A stretch of DNA of 50,300 nt from a virus (lineage: Duplodnaviria > Caudoviricetes): positions 1 to 50,300 of IMG/VR virus record IMGVR_UViG_3300006121_000011, one strand, 5' to 3'. Made by a program: the position numbers and the translations under genes. This document shows, one piece after another, positions 22,329 to 29,410 of the stretch (positions are counted from its first letter, which is position 1; the number at the start of each line of letters is the position of its first letter). Under the pieces are notes generated by a model. It ran no database searches. It saw only the letters and a list, made by a program, of their open reading frames with translations, and was not told the origin of the DNA.

Positions 22329-24584
22329 TTGGTCGATATTTCATCTTTTTCCGAACATGCCAATCAATATCTTGCACGAATAATGCAGCCGGAAGATTGG
22401 CGCGATCCCGTTGAAATGTTGCGCGAGGAAATGATTTCCTACAAATTAGAGCCGCCTAGTCATATTCCGTTTGATCGTATTTTTCGGATGAAGGCGGAAG
22501 GTGATGGTAGAAATGAGCAGGCCGGATGGGCAATCGTCCATCGATTAGATCAAATGATTGTTTCCGTTTTTGGTTCTTGGCGCGGCAATCCTGATCGCGT
22601 TTCGTGGTGCAGCCGGAACTTTAACCGGATGGATGACGAGCAAAGGAATTATTATAACAACCGAATAAGGGAAGCGGAAGAAAAACGGGAATTGGCCAAA
22701 AGGGCATTGCATGAAGAAGCCGCGCAACGTGCGTTAGAAATTTGGGCGGAGTCAAGTCCTGCGTCTAAAGATTACCCCTACATCGCACGCAAGGGCATTT
22801 CCAGAATTGAGGGCGTGCGCATTTATAAGAACAAGCTAATTGTGCCAGTTTATAATAAGAGTAAATTAGCTGGTTTTGAATATATCGAGCCGGACGGACG
22901 GAAAACCTCTCTTTACGGAACGGAAAGAAAGGGCGGGTTTTATCAGTTTGATGGCGATGTTGCAAAAATATATATCTGCGAGGGATGGGCAACGGGCGCA
23001 TCGCTTGCGGAAGCTAGCCCGTATGCGGTCGTTTCTGCTTTTGGCGGCGGCAATCTTTTTGAGGTTGCTAATTTATTGAAAAACAAATATCCGGATTCGC
23101 GTTTGATCGTGGCCGGTGATTTGGGCGATGTTGGCAGACAAAAAGCGAGACAAGCCGCCGAAGGAGTGGGGGCAATTTGCATTTTCCCGCCTGATGATAA
23201 TTCATTTGAGGGCAAAGATTTTAATGATTTACATAAAGAAAAAGGTCTTGAGGCTCTTAAAAGTTATTTGGCGAAAGTTGAGATTCCTGTTGTTTTTCAG
23301 GAAGAGAAAAAAAGCGATGATAACGTTTTATTGCCGCCAAAAGGTTTTTTGCGGGATGTGTACGATTATTACAATGCGACAAGCCGCAACCGGCAACATG
23401 GTTTTGCCGCGCAGACCGCACTTGCATTAGGTAGTGTTATTCTTGGCCGTCGATTCAAAACAAATAATGGGAATTATTCTTCCCTGTTTTTTTTGAATAT
23501 CGGTCGGACTGGGACTGGCAAGGAACATTCACGATCTGTCATTACAAAAATTATGGACGCTTGCGGACAAAATGACATGGTTTTAACGGGCGGTTATACG
23601 TCCGAAGGGGCTGTCATTACGGCGTTGTATAAATCTCCAAAACATATTTGTGTATGGGATGAATTTGGCAAAAATTTACAAGCTGGCAAAGCAGCAAAAG
23701 ACAATAATTCGCTTACTTGCCTTTCAAAGCTAATGGAGGTTATTACAGTATGCGGTGGCATTGTTTCGTCTAAAACTTATTCCGGCGCAGCCTTGGGCAA
23801 GGACAAGATAAAAACGGCTGGCTCTATTTCGATTAGACAGCCAGCCCTAACCCTATTGGCAATGACGACACCTTCCACATTTTTTGAGGGCGGCGGTCAG
23901 GGTATGGTTGCAGACGGGTTTGCGGGTCGTTTTGTGACATATATTAGCCATGCCGAACGTGAATTGCGGCGTATGGTCGATGATATTGAGGTTCCTAAAT
24001 CAATTATAGATTGGGTTATAGATGCCAATGATAGGGGAGAGACGGCAAAAACCCAAGATAATCCTGAATTGAATGTTAAACCTGTCATTATAAATATACC
24101 GGAATCAGTATATTTTCATTTTCAGAAGTTTGAGCAATGGTGCATTGATGAGGGCAAAAAGTTAGAAGTTGAGGGTAAGGGGCTGGACGATCTTTTGGTT
24201 CGCACGGCAGAACTTGCGTTGCGGATTAGTATGATCTGCGCTTTGTCGCGCAATATCAAGGCAACGGAGATACAAATAGAGGATATTGATTGGGCGGTTA
24301 ATTATATGCGGAATTGCACAACCGCCTTATTAAAAGAATATAAGAGAAAATTGTCCGGCTCTACCTTTGAGGCCGATAAACTTTCCGCTCTTGAGGCGTT
24401 TCGTAAATTGGGCGAAAAAGGCATGACATTAACCGATCTGAACAAAAAGCATCCTTTTGCCAAGTGGAAAATTAAGGATAGACAAGAGGTATTAAATGCC
24501 CTATTGGAATCGGAATTAATTGATACCCAAATAATTGATACCGGAGGCCGGAAGAAAACTATTTATTATGCGAAGGGGGAATAA
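22329..24584 (+). CDS. Toprim DNA primase fused to P-loop helicase-like (DUF3987-like) domain
   Basis: YIARKGI, LIVPV, IYICEGWATG, IVAGDLGD, KDFNDL; Walker A GRTGTGKE, Walker B VWDEFG; C-terminal TGGRKKT. Confidence 0.88.
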   Translation: MVDISSFSEHANQYLARIMQPEDWRDPVEMLREEMISYKLEPPSHIPFDRIFRMKAEGDGRNEQAGWAIVHRLDQMIVSVFGSWRGNPDRVSWCSRNFNRMDDEQRNYYNNRIREAEEKRELAKRALHEEAAQRALEIWAESSPASKDYPYIARKGISRIEGVRIYKNKLIVPVYNKSKLAGFEYIEPDGRKTSLYGTERKGGFYQFDGDVAKIYICEGWATGASLAEASPYAVVSAFGGGNLFEVANLLKNKYPDSRLIVAGDLGDVGRQKARQAAEGVGAICIFPPDDNSFEGKDFNDLHKEKGLEALKSYLAKVEIPVVFQEEKKSDDNVLLPPKGFLRDVYDYYNATSRNRQHGFAAQTALALGSVILGRRFKTNNGNYSSLFFLNIGRTGTGKEHSRSVITKIMDACGQNDMVLTGGYTSEGAVITALYKSPKHICVWDEFGKNLQAGKAAKDNNSLTCLSKLMEVITVCGGIVSSKTYSGAALGKDKIKTAGSISIRQPALTLLAMTTPSTFFEGGGQGMVADGFAGRFVTYISHAERELRRMVDDIEVPKSIIDWVIDANDRGETAKTQDNPELNVKPVIINIPESVYFHFQKFEQWCIDEGKKLEVEGKGLDDLLVRTAELALRISMICALSRNIKATEIQIEDIDWAVNYMRNCTTALLKEYKRKLSGSTFEADKLSALEAFRKLGEKGMTLTDLNKKHPFAKWKIKDRQEVLNALLESELIDTQIIDTGGRKKTIYYAKGE

Positions 24585-24934
24585 TGCAATACAAATTTAC
24601 TCTTCCTCTTTGTCCATCCGTCAATCAATTATATGGTGGCGGTTCTGCCCAAAAAAGATTTCCATCTAAAAAATATAAAGAATGGTTGTTGACTTGTCCA
24701 AAATTGCCGCCCCTTAATTTGCAAAAAGTTAGATTAGAATATACGTTTTATTTTCCAACTAAAAGGGCGGCTGATTTAGCGAATCGGGAAAAAGCAACAA
24801 CAGATTATCTTGTCAAGCAAAATGTTATTGTTGATGATAATTTTGAGGTTGTACCCGAAATGTTGTTAAAATTTGGCGGTATTAAAAAAAATAATGGGTA
24901 TGTCGATATTTTTATATTGACACTGCCTAAATAA
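24584..24934 (+). CDS. rusA: RusA-family Holliday junction resolvase
   Basis: LPLCPSVNQLY, DLANREKATTDYL, IVDDN. Confidence 0.85.
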   Translation: MQYKFTLPLCPSVNQLYGGGSAQKRFPSKKYKEWLLTCPKLPPLNLQKVRLEYTFYFPTKRAADLANREKATTDYLVKQNVIVDDNFEVVPEMLLKFGGIKKNNGYVDIFILTLPK

Positions 24935-24944
24935 GCTATATATT
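24908..24944 (+). promoter_or_regulatory. Promoter (family member 2) for the recombination operon
   Basis: TTTTATATTGACA, N16, TATATT. Confidence 0.7.
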
Positions 24945-24990: not shown

Positions 24991-25380
24991 ATGGACTTAA
25001 AAGAAAAGTTATTGCTGTTGCAGCAACAGATACAGTCTCTTAAAGAGCATGAAGCCGACATTAAAGCGCAAATTGTCGAACTTAACAAAAATACGATTGA
25101 AAAAAAGTTAAACGGCAAAGATTACGGATGCGGGTCATTTACACATGACGGCATAAAATTTGCGCGTGACAAGAAAGTTGAATATGACCAAACTGGTCTT
25201 GCTGAAATGTATCGCAAAATTGCAGCGACAAACGAAAACCCTGAGGAATATATCGAAATCAAGTATTCCATTTCTGAACGGAAGTACGCGGCGTGGCCGA
25301 CTTCTATTAAGGAACAATTTGAGCCATTGCGTACAGTAACACCACAACCGATCAAAATAACATTAGCAGGGGAAAAGTAA
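24991..25380 (+). CDS. Hypothetical phage protein with coiled-coil N-terminus
   Basis: GGAGG SD; SERKYAAWP motif. Confidence 0.75.
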   Translation: MDLKEKLLLLQQQIQSLKEHEADIKAQIVELNKNTIEKKLNGKDYGCGSFTHDGIKFARDKKVEYDQTGLAEMYRKIAATNENPEEYIEIKYSISERKYAAWPTSIKEQFEPLRTVTPQPIKITLAGEK

Positions 25381-25381
25381 C

Positions 25382-27397
25382 ATGACAAAGAAGTATGAGC
25401 TTACAAAAGAACATAAGGCCATGTTTCCTGCTTGGCGGGATAAATGGATTGCAAATGCTATGTCAACAAAGGCTATGGATGATGAAGAAAGAGAAAAATG
25501 TCGCGAGGCTGTTAAATCTTTGTATAGATCAGCGAATCTTACGCCGCCGCCAGATCATAGGATTGTTTTTGTGCCTTCACCATTTGTTTTACGTTTTGCC
25601 GCAGGGTTTGCTTGTGCAATTTGGTACATGAAAAATAATAAGACAAAAAGTGTTGATGTTGCGACCCGCGATGCGATCGACGATTCGACCCGCGATGCGA
25701 CCAGCGATGCGACCCGCGATGCGATCGACGCTGCGACCCGCGATGCGACCGGCGCTGCGACCTATCATGAAACCGTTGATGCGATCGACCCTGCTACCGG
25801 CGCTGCGATCGACGATGCGATCGACACTGCGACCTACGTTGCGATCGACACTGCGACCTACGATGCGACCATTGTTGCGACCCGCGCTGCGATCGACGTT
25901 GCGACTCACGCTGCGACCCGCGATGCGACCCGCTATTCGATCGACGATGCGACCGACGATGCGATCGGCGCTGCGACCTATCATGAAACCGTTGATGCGA
26001 TCGGCGCTGCGACCGACGCTGCGACCCGCGCTGCGACCGGCGCTGCGATCGACTATGCGACCGAAGATTCGATCGACGATGCGACCAGCGATGCGACCCG
26101 CGATTCGATCGACGATTCGACCGGCGCTGAGACCTATCATGAAACCATTGATGCGACCATTGCTGCGACCGTTGCTGCGATCGACACTGCGACCTACGTT
26201 GCGACCGGCGCTGCGACCTATCATGAAACCGTTGATGCGATCGGCGCTGCGACCCGCGATGCGACCGGCGCTGCGACCCGCGCTTTGACCCGCGATGAGA
26301 TCGACGATGCGACCGACGATGCGACCCGCGATGCGATCGACGCTGCGACCCGCGATGCGACCGGCGCTGCGACCTATCATGAAACCGTTGATGCGATCGA
26401 CCCTGCTACCGGCGCTGCGACCATTGCGGCGACCATTGTTGCGACCCGCGCTGCGATCGGCGCTGAGACCCGTGCTGCGACCGAAAATGCGACCTATCAT
26501 GAAACCGTTGATGCGATCGACGATGCGACCGACATTGCGACCTGCGATGCGACCTATCATGAAACCGTTGATGCGATCGACGCTGCGACCGACGCTGCGA
26601 CCCGCGATGCGACCGGCGCTGCGACCCGCGCTGCAATGGATAAGAAGAAAAAAGGCAAAAACAATTGGTTTAATTTAGATGTTTCACTGATGGTGAACTT
26701 GTCTAAAAAATTAGGAGTTGGCGAGTTTGGATTAAAATGTTGCGTTGATTGTTATTGGAGGATGTACCAAGGTGGAAATCAATGGTCTGGATGGTCTGCG
26801 TTTCTGACATTTTTTAGATATATTGCCAAACTACCACTGGATTATTCAAAATTTGATGCTTTTGAATATCTTTCTGAACATAGCGGACCCCGTATTATGC
26901 ACAAAGAATTTTGCATGATTAGTGATCGTCCTGAGATATTAAAAGTTGATGACCAGAATCGTCCTCATTCCGAGAATGGACCTTTTTGCAAATGGCGTGA
27001 TGGTACAGCGTTATATGCTTGGCATGGAATATATATTCCCGAATGGTGGATAACAAATAAAGATGAGTTGACACCAGAAATTGCCTTGAAGTGGGAAAAT
27101 GTAGAACAAAGGAGGGCTGCTTGCGAAATGTTGGGATGGGCAAATGTTTTAGAACATCCTAGCTTAAATCCTAAAATTATAAACGAAGATCAGCCTCATA
27201 TCGGAACACTTATTGAGGTGGATTTGCCCGATGCTAAAGGCCAATGGTTTCTTAAATATCAATGTGGAACTGGAAGATGGTTTGCTGAAAGCGTCAATGA
27301 TAAATCGTTTAATACGGCTCTAAAGGCCAATGCTGGCGGGAATGGGTGGCGCGGCGTTGGTAATCCAGAGGACTACATACCCTTTTATCGCACTTAA
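25382..27397 (+). CDS. DUF6745-like protein with a long tetrapeptide-repeat insert
   Basis: N-terminal WRDKWIANAMST...IVFVPSP; C-terminal RPEILKVDDQNRPHSENGP..WRDG..YAWHG...NVEQRRA. Confidence 0.8.
   Translation: MTKKYELTKEHKAMFPAWRDKWIANAMSTKAMDDEEREKCREAVKSLYRSANLTPPPDHRIVFVPSPFVLRFAAGFACAIWYMKNNKTKSVDVATRDAIDDSTRDATSDATRDAIDAATRDATGAATYHETVDAIDPATGAAIDDAIDTATYVAIDTATYDATIVATRAAIDVATHAATRDATRYSIDDATDDAIGAATYHETVDAIGAATDAATRAATGAAIDYATEDSIDDATSDATRDSIDDSTGAETYHETIDATIAATVAAIDTATYVATGAATYHETVDAIGAATRDATGAATRALTRDEIDDATDDATRDAIDAATRDATGAATYHETVDAIDPATGAATIAATIVATRAAIGAETRAATENATYHETVDAIDDATDIATCDATYHETVDAIDAATDAATRDATGAATRAAMDKKKKGKNNWFNLDVSLMVNLSKKLGVGEFGLKCCVDCYWRMYQGGNQWSGWSAFLTFFRYIAKLPLDYSKFDAFEYLSEHSGPRIMHKEFCMISDRPEILKVDDQNRPHSENGPFCKWRDGTALYAWHGIYIPEWWITNKDELTPEIALKWENVEQRRAACEMLGWANVLEHPSLNPKIINEDQPHIGTLIEVDLPDAKGQWFLKYQCGTGRWFAESVNDKSFNTALKANAGGNGWRGVGNPEDYIPFYRT
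25658..26629 (+). repeat. 81 tandem 12-bp units (mostly NNT GCG AYC NNY) encoding x-A-T/I-x
   Basis: Counted unit by unit; no indels; 7 copies of TATCATGAAACC; about 100-bp exact duplication 612 bp apart. Confidence 0.95.
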
Positions 27398-27412
27398 CAA
27401 ACGGAGAGTAAG

Positions 27413-27832
27413 ATGACAGAAGTAATGTTAACAGAAGAAATGTTTTCAACAGGCAAACCTTTTGCTCAAGGCGAAGTTTTGATCTGGATGAAAAAATACG
27501 CCCCAAAAGAAATTTTGGAAAAAGTTGCAGCTTTGAAAAATATGGTCGACATGAAATTGGAAAACGACCAATTAATTCTTGGCCATAGTGAAACCGGTCA
27601 CCACCATGTTTTGGAGCCGGTTAGAAAAGATGTTCATGTTTCTAAAGTTGCTCAAGCTTTAATTGACTTGGCTAATGATAATTTTGTTAACCTTAAACTT
27701 TTGGAGCCTTGCGAGATCATCCATCTTCGCGGTTTTGATACTCATAAATCGATTGTTTTACCTGCTGGTGAATACATTCGAGGATTGCGTGAAGAACAAA
27801 CCGTTGAGGGTTGGGTTCGAGTTGCTGATTAA
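27413..27832 (+). CDS. His-motif partner protein of the DUF6745-like gene
   Basis: AQGEVLI, LGHSETGHHH, IIH...THKSIVLPAGEY, VRVAD. Confidence 0.75.
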   Translation: MTEVMLTEEMFSTGKPFAQGEVLIWMKKYAPKEILEKVAALKNMVDMKLENDQLILGHSETGHHHVLEPVRKDVHVSKVAQALIDLANDNFVNLKLLEPCEIIHLRGFDTHKSIVLPAGEYIRGLREEQTVEGWVRVAD

Positions 27833-27855: not shown

Positions 27856-28548
27856 ATGGCACTACAATTTACAAATACATCCGATGTATCTGTTCACTAC
27901 TTAAAAGTGCTAGTACACGGCCCCGCTGGTTCGGGCAAAACCAGATTGGCTGGTACTACAGGCGCGGAAACTCTTATTATTAGTGCGGAGGCTGGTTTGT
28001 TGTCTTTGCGCAATAAAAAGATTGATGTTTTTACGGTCAAGGATATTGCTGGCGTTCGTGAAGTTTACGAATATCTGCTAACCGATAAAAAATATCAATG
28101 GGTTGTCCTTGATAGCATTTCGGAAATTGGCGAAGTTGTTTTGAATAGCGAAATGGAAAAAACAAAAGACCCGCGCAAGGCTTACGGAGAAACGGCAAAT
28201 GTACTTAACGCCTTAATCCGTTGTTTTCGTGATTTGCCTAAAAATGTTTATGTTTCTGCTAAACAGGAACGGACAAAGGACGAAACAACTGGGCAATTAT
28301 TCTGGGGCGCTTCTATGCCTGGCCAAAAATTGGGGCCAGCTTTGCCCTACTTTTTTGATGAAGTTTTTGCCATGCGTACCAAAAATGTTACCGATGAAAA
28401 CGGAAACATAGACACGAAATATGCTTTGCAAACACGGCGTGACGACAGTTACGAAGCAAAAGATAGAAGTGGCGTTCTTGCTAATTTTGAAGAGCCGGAT
28501 TTATCCGCTATCTATGATAAAATCATTAACCAAGTACAAGGAGAATAG
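27856..28548 (+). CDS. AAA ATPase (AAA_24 / Sak4-like recombination protein)
   Basis: GPAGSGKT, SAEAGL, VVLDSISE, LPYFFDEV, AKDRSG. Confidence 0.88.
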   Translation: MALQFTNTSDVSVHYLKVLVHGPAGSGKTRLAGTTGAETLIISAEAGLLSLRNKKIDVFTVKDIAGVREVYEYLLTDKKYQWVVLDSISEIGEVVLNSEMEKTKDPRKAYGETANVLNALIRCFRDLPKNVYVSAKQERTKDETTGQLFWGASMPGQKLGPALPYFFDEVFAMRTKNVTDENGNIDTKYALQTRRDDSYEAKDRSGVLANFEEPDLSAIYDKIINQVQGE

Positions 28549-28550
28549 CA

Positions 28551-29051
28551 ATGGCTTTAATACAAATTCCACAGGAGTTTCAAAAACTAGTTGATGAAAT
28601 TCAAACATCATCCGGCAGGGGATTGCCCAAAATTCCAGAAGGTAAATATCACGGAGTGGCAGTTAAATCTGAACTTGTTACAACAAAAAGCGGCACTGGC
28701 ACAATGTTAGTTGTCACATTTGTTATTACGCAAGGTGAATATCGTGATACAGAATTTACCAAGCGGTTTAATATTAAAAATGACAGTCTACAAGCTGTAA
28801 AAATTGGGTTTGAAGAATTGGCTTCATTTGTAAAGTCCATTCGTATGCCTAAAATTCCAGAAGATAGTTCCGTATTGCATAACAAACCTTTGTTACTTGT
28901 TATTCATGATGTTAAAGGCAAGCCTTGGACGGATGGTGAAGGCAATCAACGGGAGGGGAAAGATTATTCGGAACTGAAAGGTTTTGAGCCATTGCCACAA
29001 GTCGGCATTGCCTCTTCTTCTCCAGCATCGGCAAAGTCGGTTAGCTGGTAA
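28551..29051 (+). CDS. Single-stranded DNA-binding protein (DUF669-like)
   Basis: IPEGKY, TKSGTGTML, GEY, LHNKPL; follows the Sak4-like ATPase; aromatic C-terminus. Confidence 0.75.
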   Translation: MALIQIPQEFQKLVDEIQTSSGRGLPKIPEGKYHGVAVKSELVTTKSGTGTMLVVTFVITQGEYRDTEFTKRFNIKNDSLQAVKIGFEELASFVKSIRMPKIPEDSSVLHNKPLLLVIHDVKGKPWTDGEGNQREGKDYSELKGFEPLPQVGIASSSPASAKSVSW

Positions 29052-29152: not shown

Positions 29153-29176
29153 TTTCCTTAACAAACGGAGAATAAC

Positions 29177-29410
29177 ATGAGCGAAATAGAACAATTAAAA
29201 AACGGTCAAAAAAATCCTATTGAGACCGCAACAAATAAGCTGCGCGAAGCCTTGCAAAAAGATGCTCAGGCCAAGATTGATGCACAAGTAAAAAAAACAA
29301 TTGATGCTTGCAAAATTGCTAAAAATGAAAAAGCTGAATTGCAGCGTTTAATTGGTGATTTTGAAAATGAAAAAGCCAATCTTAAAGATTTGCTTGGGGA
29401 TTTGTCGTAA
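29177..29410 (+). CDS. Coiled-coil hypothetical protein
   Basis: CGGAGA SD. Confidence 0.7.
   Translation: MSEIEQLKNGQKNPIETATNKLREALQKDAQAKIDAQVKKTIDACKIAKNEKAELQRLIGDFENEKANLKDLLGDLS

Follow-up and report, generated by a model that had tools for sequence, protein, structure and literature searches.

The closest described counterpart of the protein reported here is gp54 of mycobacteriophage Tweety. In the available portion of the published account (PMC2884959), its gene is built on a 12-bp unit in which two Ala codons and the third codon positions are invariant; variation falls on positions 1 and 2 of the other two codons, the core is GC-rich, and the repeat units number 48 in Tweety, 26 in Che8 (gp57), and 15 in PMC (gp51). 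Mutants that escape the Phrann gp29/gp30 defense carry more or fewer repeats in gene 54 (PMC9262239, as far as its available text goes), and within these sources gp54 is the only repeat protein of the kind with a tested role. The available part of PMC2884959 also describes an in-gene tandem repeat of 9 to 20 copies among isolates, VR2 of the nonessential gene bbp36 in Bordetella phage BMP-1. In searches of the literature, only the Tweety case proved relevant to tetrapeptide repeats in prophages, and no paper was found that names “DUF6745” or “PF20530.” Here we analyze a two-gene module of similar repeat design in an uncultured freshwater phage of the class Caudoviricetes, IMG/VR record IMGVR_UViG_3300006121_000011; the window is the whole record, 50,300 bases with an estimated completeness of 98%. 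On its plus strand, an open reading frame (ORF) at 25382-27397 encodes a 671-amino-acid (aa) protein with a Pfam PF20530 (DUF6745) match, in which a long tetrapeptide array separates two conserved domains, and a second ORF at 27413-27832 encodes a His-rich partner protein of 139 aa. We find that arrays of this family evolve much faster than their flanks and that the partner is a near-obligate companion of DUF6745 genes.

Results

Organization of the tetrapeptide array

Direct reading of the units and Tandem Repeats Finder (TRF) placed the array at 25658-26629 on the plus strand, where 81 in-frame 12-bp units encode x-A-(T/I)-x tetrapeptides (TRF: period 12, 80.6 copies, 0% indels, score 492, with a higher period of 120). 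Measured over 300 nt at a time, the GC content is 0.62 to 0.65 within the array versus 0.39 to 0.43 in the flanks. The units are of 37 distinct kinds by DNA and 36 by peptide. The third positions of the first three codons are almost fixed as T (80/81), G (72/81), and C (80/81), and the fourth codon ends with C in 59 units, T in 20, and A in 2. At positions 1 and 2, the minor-base load is 16 and 39 in codon 1 and 37 and 46 in codon 4, with 9 kinds of amino acid found at residue 1 and 10 at residue 4; residue 2 is Ala in 65 of the 81 units, and either Thr (60 units) or Ile (21 units) occupies residue 3. Altogether, 148 codons deviate from the majority of their slot, 145 of them nonsynonymously and only 3 synonymously, whereas a synonymous share of 0.22 would be expected from single-step neighbors. 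The binomial P value for this synonymous deficit is 9e-13, a figure that treats array copies as independent events, which they are not; counted by distinct codon types, there are 2 synonymous versus 25 nonsynonymous changes. The variable codons are of the NNC/NNT type, from which changes at positions 1 and 2 cannot reach a stop codon.

The motif xTYHET(V/I) occurs in seven copies, and self-comparison revealed an exact 104-nt internal duplicate with its copies at 25705-25808 and 26317-26420 (both on the plus strand), an offset of 612 nt or 51 units. A sequence-only reading of this DNA had described 81 GC-rich units with no indels, near-fixed third positions, and mostly amino-acid-changing variation, together with the seven motif copies and an exact repeat of about 100 bp spaced 612 bp apart; all of these features were recovered where it had placed them. 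The encoded array is acidic, with 66 Asp plus Glu versus 18 Lys plus Arg residues and a net charge of -0.15 per residue. At the DNA level, each unit is composed of a fixed 7-mer, TGCGAYC, and 5 variable bases, and the period is near one helical turn. All six reading frames are open through the array; the ORFs that run through it in other frames or on the other strand (25589-26560 on the minus strand, 25650-26288 and 26295-26678 on the plus strand) are by-products of the stop-free repeat, not genes.

In four freshwater metagenome runs, all from 2017 and possibly from one campaign, Logan contigs contained both flanks together with many array pieces of 62 to 177 nt, with 0 differences from the window, and no contig of these four runs spans the array. 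The freshwater runs X1 to X5 contain 66 to 92% of the sequence words of the phage.

Array variation within the DUF6745 family

The homologue search covered proteins of 369 to 1175 aa (E ≤ 1e-3) and found 198, of which the best 120 were analyzed. By using hidden Markov models (HMMs), with the N-domain model built from an alignment whose first row is the window protein, the N- and C-terminal domains were found together in 118 of the 120 homologues, which confirms that the array splits two conserved parts of the protein. The middles between the two domains range from 32 to 649 aa in these 118 proteins (median, 89), and a crude detector registered at least 5 period-4 units in 108 of the 120. The commonest units carry an Ala-Thr core (AATx, xATx, SATx, and DATx), and SAVx, xQLx, SSLx, SVxx, and QVxx units are also found. 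The window array, at 324 aa, is longer than any middle (up to 316 aa) among the 66 complete ORFs in the loci fetched for the linkage survey described below; 25 of these 66 lie below the period-4 threshold. Homologues P0010, P0023, and P0110 have degenerate, nonperiodic middles.

Arrays evolve much faster than the domains on either side of them. Among the 120 homologues, 36 pairs have N- plus C-terminal flanks that are 90% or more identical; every one of these pairs differs in the middle, and pairs with 100% identical flanks have middles up to 90 aa apart. Invariance of the array among relatives is thereby refuted, since middles differ even where flanks are 99 to 100% identical. The nearest viral relatives (80 to 84% identity in the C-domain) contain arrays of other unit types and have no HETV unit. 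Homologue P0001 (611 aa, on a 51.4-kb contig) is the window protein minus one 60-aa block, with a shared prefix of 304 aa and a shared suffix of 309 aa. The missing segment of 180 nt (15 units) corresponds to 26288-26467 on the plus strand and is bounded by ACCCG microhomology; it reflects either a real length polymorphism or an assembly difference.

The fixed residues are encoded uniformly within an array, with synonymous choices that change from array to array: GCG-ACC in the window and in loci L006 and L012, GCC-ACG in L005 and L008, GCG-ACT in L011, and AGC-GCC-GTT in L010. The choice of codon thus differs between arrays in which the peptide core is kept, and therefore selection acts at the peptide, not the DNA, level. 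The 72 units of L008 vary almost only at two bases, as do the 24 units of L010. This pattern speaks for recent expansion within each lineage by recombination, with retention of the core and favored change at the free positions, and against a binding site at the DNA level. The earlier suggestion that recombination may reshuffle the array is compatible with the 104-nt duplicate and with the 15 units that P0001 lacks.

Beyond these homologues, the C-domain profile has relatives on at least 504 viral contigs, and 11 of 50,697 deposited phage records contain DUF6745 according to tblastn. In an Atlas cluster of 72 cyanobacterial proteins, 682 aa in length, DUF6745 is combined with LRR_4/LRR_8 repeats, so that cellular forms of the domain are likewise coupled to a repeat-type scaffold for binding, though a different one.

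Domain structure of the repeat protein

The assignment to DUF6745, made at first from the letters alone, was borne out by Pfam: PF20530 matches residues 489-617 (26846-27232) with 52.4 bits against a cut-off of 27, and with 54.4 bits in a six-frame search. The protein also matches phrog_31813 (E 1.4e-8). An AlphaFold2 model calculated from an alignment of 57 sequences is confident over residues 1-88 and 430-650 (predicted local distance difference test [pLDDT] of about 77 to 97). The first of these regions belongs to the conserved N-terminal domain of 92 aa (25382-25657, plus strand), which is delimited by the HMM and has pLDDT values of 86 to 96 over residues 1-80; the second belongs to the C-terminal globular region holding DUF6745 (26630-27397, plus strand). 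Long helices are drawn across the array with pLDDT values of 40 to 65 and are unreliable. From this model, we infer that the array may adopt an extended helical or flexible state. It had been called a length- and sequence-variable rod: the variability is seen among homologues with 99 to 100% identical flanks, whereas the rod shape derives from these low-confidence helices.

No sequence relative of the N-domain, the C-domain, or the C-domain profile was found in the PDB, and the C-domain model has no clear relative by fold among solved structures. An NCBIfam scan of both the repeat protein and the partner gave nothing meaningful.

The partner protein and its linkage to DUF6745

The partner is predicted to be mostly β (AlphaFold2 pLDDT, 88.9) and contains the motifs QGEV, GHSETGHHH, LPAGEY, and RVAD. 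Residues Q19, G20, P31, H65, H104, R106, D109, H111, G119, Y121, E128, and D139 are invariant, and H58, E60, H63, and H64 are nearly so; a metal site is plausible from the conserved His and acidic residues. The model matched no solved structure, with no cupin or other known fold seen, and the partner profile found no sequence relative in the PDB. There was also no direct Pfam, PHROG (E ≤ 0.01), or NCBIfam match; PF31129 was named for the partner by the Atlas structure search only. Relatives comprise 272 close homologues and 675 cluster representatives (E ≤ 1e-3), nearly all of 105 to 145 aa, and phrog_27831 was matched by 11 of the 12 distant partner-profile hits tested. P0351, a protein of 1312 aa with nine short partner-profile matches and low-complexity PHROG/Pfam hits, probably matches through its composition.

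Linkage of the two genes was surveyed in both directions. The partner profile retrieved 166 loci from viral, metagenome, and genome collections (at least 4 contigs duplicated across two collections were kept), and in 145 of them DUF6745 stands beside the partner, with 124 loci having it directly upstream on the same strand and 21 having it downstream; in the remainder, it lies elsewhere (3 loci) or is absent (11 loci), or the flank is too short (7 loci). Conversely, among 80 viral loci fetched with the C-domain profile, 74 have the partner within 3.5 kb, directly downstream in 51, directly upstream in 4, and elsewhere within this distance in 19; it is absent in 4, and the flank is too short in 2. 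The partner is a near-obligate companion of DUF6745 genes, as the sequence-only reading had stated. Among the 80 IMG/VR loci (L183-L262), the 19 with a nonadjacent partner often have short DUF6745 ORFs, of about 290 aa. No DUF6745-partner fusion was found among the ORFs of the first 182 loci or in a word search for longer proteins; a row of the Atlas structure search hints at one with a template modeling (TM) score of 0.61, below the Atlas bar for naming.

The N-domain, the C-domain, and the partner were modeled as a complex, which gave an ipSAE score of 0.53 (0.53, 0.61, and 0.51 in the individual runs), whereas none of three controls scored above 0.00. The runs share at least 75% of contacts, and the pLDDT of the partner is at least 77. 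Of 157 solved complexes, 116 pass the mark set for a complex, as do 2 of 215 mismatched pairs; those that pass it with a score of 0.60 or below include only 18 of the 157 solved complexes but both of the passing mismatches. Because of the tight gene linkage, physical binding of the pair is taken as likely, the predicted complex lending it weak support.

Pairs were also found at genome loci (L103-L182) on contigs of Alphaproteobacteria (Xanthobacter, Mesorhizobium, Bradyrhizobium, and Sphingobium) and of Mycobacterium/Mycolicibacterium, where they presumably lie in prophages. The closest genome locus is on a 2-kb contig of a Spartobacteria metagenome-assembled genome (61% identity), which gives no firm host for the window phage.

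Genome context of the pair

In a PHROG scan of 44 ORFs, the structural genes of the window proved to be podovirus-like, and its plus strand was seen to carry an early block. In the early block, a primase/helicase with Toprim and DUF3987 domains (22329-24584; Pfam/PHROG) is followed by RusA (24584-24934), a phrog_2480 protein (24991-25380), the pair, a Sak4-like ATPase (27856-28548; phrog_124, E 2e-49), and a DUF669 single-stranded DNA-binding protein (SSB; 28551-29051; DUF669/phrog_6015), all on the plus strand; a Cas4-domain exonuclease and a helicase are located farther along. These genes are closely packed, with spacers of 1 to 56 nt, and the partner starts 15 nt past the stop codon of the repeat gene. 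The Pfam and PHROG matches agree with the earlier placement of the pair in a recombination/replication module, upstream of the Sak4-like gene and the SSB gene. A blastn search of phage records with the region gave zero matches.

The strongest promoter-like site of the region (24917-24944, plus strand; TTGACA-16-TATATT, 11/12) lies just 5′ of the ORF that begins at 24991 and could drive the genes from 24991 on. In the promoter and terminator scan as a whole, counts were not above those of shuffled sequences (25 promoters versus 19.2±5.0; 12 terminators versus 10.3±3.1). A 23-nt element, TTAACAAACGGAGA(G/A)TAA(G/C)ATGA, is present at 27394-27416 and 29158-29180, that is, before the start of the partner gene and before the start of the ORF at 29177-29410. 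In all four Logan runs, one contig reaching 27416 continues with letters identical to the window from 29181 onward; this could be a coexisting variant without the partner-Sak4-SSB block, or it could be the phage's own downstream contig, placed on the short repeat. In run X2, a contig joins the partner gene at 27467, and its upstream letters differ and encode another N terminus, which points to a related allele of the partner in that sample.

Discussion

The reading that we consider the best candidate, though a tentative one, is that the pair is a two-gene early accessory module acting on a host factor, a tunable host-interaction system whose role would most likely be counterdefense. In the repeat protein, the conserved N-domain and the DUF6745 C-domain are held apart by the long tetrapeptide array, in which two positions of each unit (Ala and Thr/Ile) are kept and two are free to vary. 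Because the units are near-identical 12-bp DNA repeats, slipped-strand events or unequal homologous recombination may add, delete, and reshuffle them in frame at high frequency, which would alter the length and the surface of the middle and leave the end domains untouched. The His-rich β partner would work with the DUF6745 core, probably as a complex; the end domains and the partner would then represent the constant working part, and the array, retuned by recombination of its units, would set the spacing of the end domains or present a variable face. The counterdefense role is inferred by analogy from the change in the repeat number of Tweety gp54 in response to Phrann gp29/gp30. A counterdefense decoy and an acidic nucleic-acid mimic had both been offered as examples by the sequence-only reading. 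Of these, counterdefense would follow from the analogy with gp54, whereas the mimic is weakened: the window array is acidic, but among the 118 homologues 60 have an acidic middle, 57 a neutral one, and 1 a basic one, which means that the acidity is not shared throughout the family.

The array might also be more than a spacer, namely, a recognition surface that recombination can program, an idea that appears to us decidedly doubtful. Here, the Ala-Thr/Ile residues would form a fixed scaffold, the two free positions of each unit would make up a combinatorial face, and shuffling of the 12-bp units would give the population a repertoire of specificities served by a constant effector, the DUF6745 core with its partner. 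Such a role would fit the cyanobacterial cluster that joins leucine-rich repeats to DUF6745, and, if true, the array would be a phage counterpart of leucine-rich-repeat diversity.

Several observations weigh against the proposal of a tunable host-interaction module. Some DUF6745 members have no array, for instance, gp174 of Ma-LMM01, and middles go down to 0 aa; because of such members, the DUF6745 core and its partner can evidently work without one. Neither domain has a recognizable fold or catalytic motif, neither protein matches the defense-system models of PADLOC (best E, 0.031), and the score of the modeled complex falls in the band of weak support. None of the 11 runs listed for the phage is an RNA run. 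The flanks of Tweety gp54 (EF536069) are not homologous to those of the window protein, with no DUF6745 or other Pfam match and a BLASTP E value of 28, so the analogy would cover the repeat design only. Finally, whereas the content of the array recurs in several data sets, a single assembly supplies its count of 81 units and their order, the array being spanned by no Logan contig.

That last point leads to an alternative that touches only the exact count and order of units and not the existence of the array, namely, that short-read assembly of a repeat produced the 81 units with their 104-nt duplicate, as well as the 15 units by which the window protein and P0001 differ. We regard this as somewhat unlikely. 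Arrays of this kind often break assemblies, with 34 of the 80 viral DUF6745 loci and 67 of 147 distinct ORFs in the partner-fetched loci running to a contig edge; the Logan pieces are short, and an exact 104-nt repeat could produce a mis-join. On the other hand, the pieces from the four runs agree with the window at many places, and like arrays occur in Tweety, which was Sanger sequenced, and in many independent assemblies. Because they so often end contigs, DUF6745 arrays are a systematic cause of broken phage metagenome assemblies and of wrong repeat counts. As regards function, the main rival to host interaction is a role as a recombination/replication accessory, in which the pair would modulate host nucleases or repair in a Gam/Abc-like manner or serve as a single-strand-annealing cofactor, with the array as an acidic extended spacer. 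The position of the window pair between RusA and the Sak4/SSB/Cas4-like exonuclease/helicase genes favors it, as does the net negative charge of the array. In a survey of 12 diverse viral loci with 47 flanking ORFs, the nearest neighbors included a RecE-like exonuclease (L186), a phrog_69 exonuclease (L190), Erf with NinB (L225), and RecT (L231), and in L204 and L196 they included a replication initiator and a DNA polymerase exonuclease, respectively; RecE-like, Erf/NinB, RecT, or exonuclease genes lay near the module in 4 of the 12, and Ma-LMM01 gp174 adjoins a uracil-DNA glycosylase. However, any recombination/replication neighbor is lacking in 6 of the 12 loci, the module elsewhere stands beside a terminase (L201), an integrase (L196), regulators, or unknown genes, and early regions mix antidefense and recombination genes anyway. 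The acidity that such a spacer would need is inconstant, given the 57 neutral middles, and the fold matches lie under the level that the tool calls meaningful. An accessory role of this sort seems unlikely to us.

Two further explanations differ in what they make of the repeat itself. The array could be a slippage-prone, low-complexity linker that is tolerated and drifts neutrally, with function residing in the DUF6745 core and the partner only. Array-less members, the degenerate middles of P0010, P0023, and P0110, the complete ORFs under the period-4 threshold, and the low AlphaFold2 confidence over the array are all in line with this. Neutrality, however, predicts that synonymous variants should be common, and only 3 of the 148 deviating codons are synonymous; moreover, lineages that differ in their codons share the Ala-Thr core, the arrays are in frame and free of stop codons in 108 of the 120 homologues, and the variable NNC/NNT codons are shielded from stops at the positions that change. 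Because of these codon statistics, we consider neutral drift improbable. The 12-bp repeats could instead act as DNA, as iterons of an origin or as sites for a replication or recombination protein, with coding being secondary. In its favor are the location of the array within the replication module, shortly downstream of the primase/helicase gene, the fixed 7-mer with its near-helical period, and the six open frames. An iteron should show repeat-unit DNA conserved among relatives, and this was not found: the core DNA differs between arrays (GCG-ACC, GCC-ACG, GCG-ACT, or AGC-GCC-GTT) and the peptide is kept. Unit numbers from 10 to more than 80 and different unit types such as xQLx and SSLx misfit a single binding site, and the same design is found at other genome positions, for example, beside a terminase. 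A DNA-level function was rejected as the principal explanation on the ground that the codons of the fixed residues differ among arrays, and we give it very little weight.

Comparison with known systems

As far as the available parts of the Tweety reports go, the window protein resembles gp54 in having a tetrapeptide array whose units each combine two fixed residues with two variable ones, fixed third codon positions, a GC-rich core, a unit number that varies among close relatives, conserved N- and C-terminal flanks, and a location in the early region. The two proteins differ in their units (AAxx in gp54 versus xA(T/I)x in the window) and in the C-terminal part, which is only about 45 aa long in gp54. 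In a Pfam comparison, the neighboring Tweety proteins gp53, gp55, and gp56 gave no related match, and no His-rich partner was seen beside gp54. VR2 of bbp36, by its published description, has a 24-bp unit (a 19-bp repeat plus a 5-bp spacer) that does not encode a tetrapeptide.

Targets of diversity-generating retroelements (DGRs) vary at the first two positions of codons that are unable to become stops (AAC). The window array likewise varies at positions 1 and 2 of NNC/NNT codons; unlike a DGR target, its variable region is a tandem array, and there is no template repeat. A DGR was ruled out because the genome has no reverse transcriptase: PF00078 gave 0 matches in the whole record, and none was found in the PHROG scan of the 44 ORFs.

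Homologues of the window protein, which share both its N- and C-domains, are found, for example, in three annotated genomes, where they are listed as hypothetical proteins, none with a tested function. Gp174 of the Microcystis phage Ma-LMM01 group contains DUF6745 and no array, and gp175 beside it is a partner homologue (hhalign probability, 97.8%). In the Mycobacterium abscessus prophage prophiGD102-1, gp38 combines DUF6745 with xQLx period-4 units, and gp37, encoded upstream, is distantly related to the partner (hhalign probability of 70.6% over 49 columns). UOF77368 of a Manatee Spring virus (MW202476) has SSLx units, and its adjacent partner is an unannotated ORF (L015:3507-4046). The partner gene comes first in Ma-LMM01 and prophiGD102-1, whereas the repeat gene comes first in the window. 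As far as our literature searches show, the principle of such repeats has been published for a single unrelated protein, and its use in a large family with an obligate partner is apparently new. The occurrence of the Tweety repeat design in such a family suggests a general and unstudied route by which phages may evolve rapidly against their hosts.

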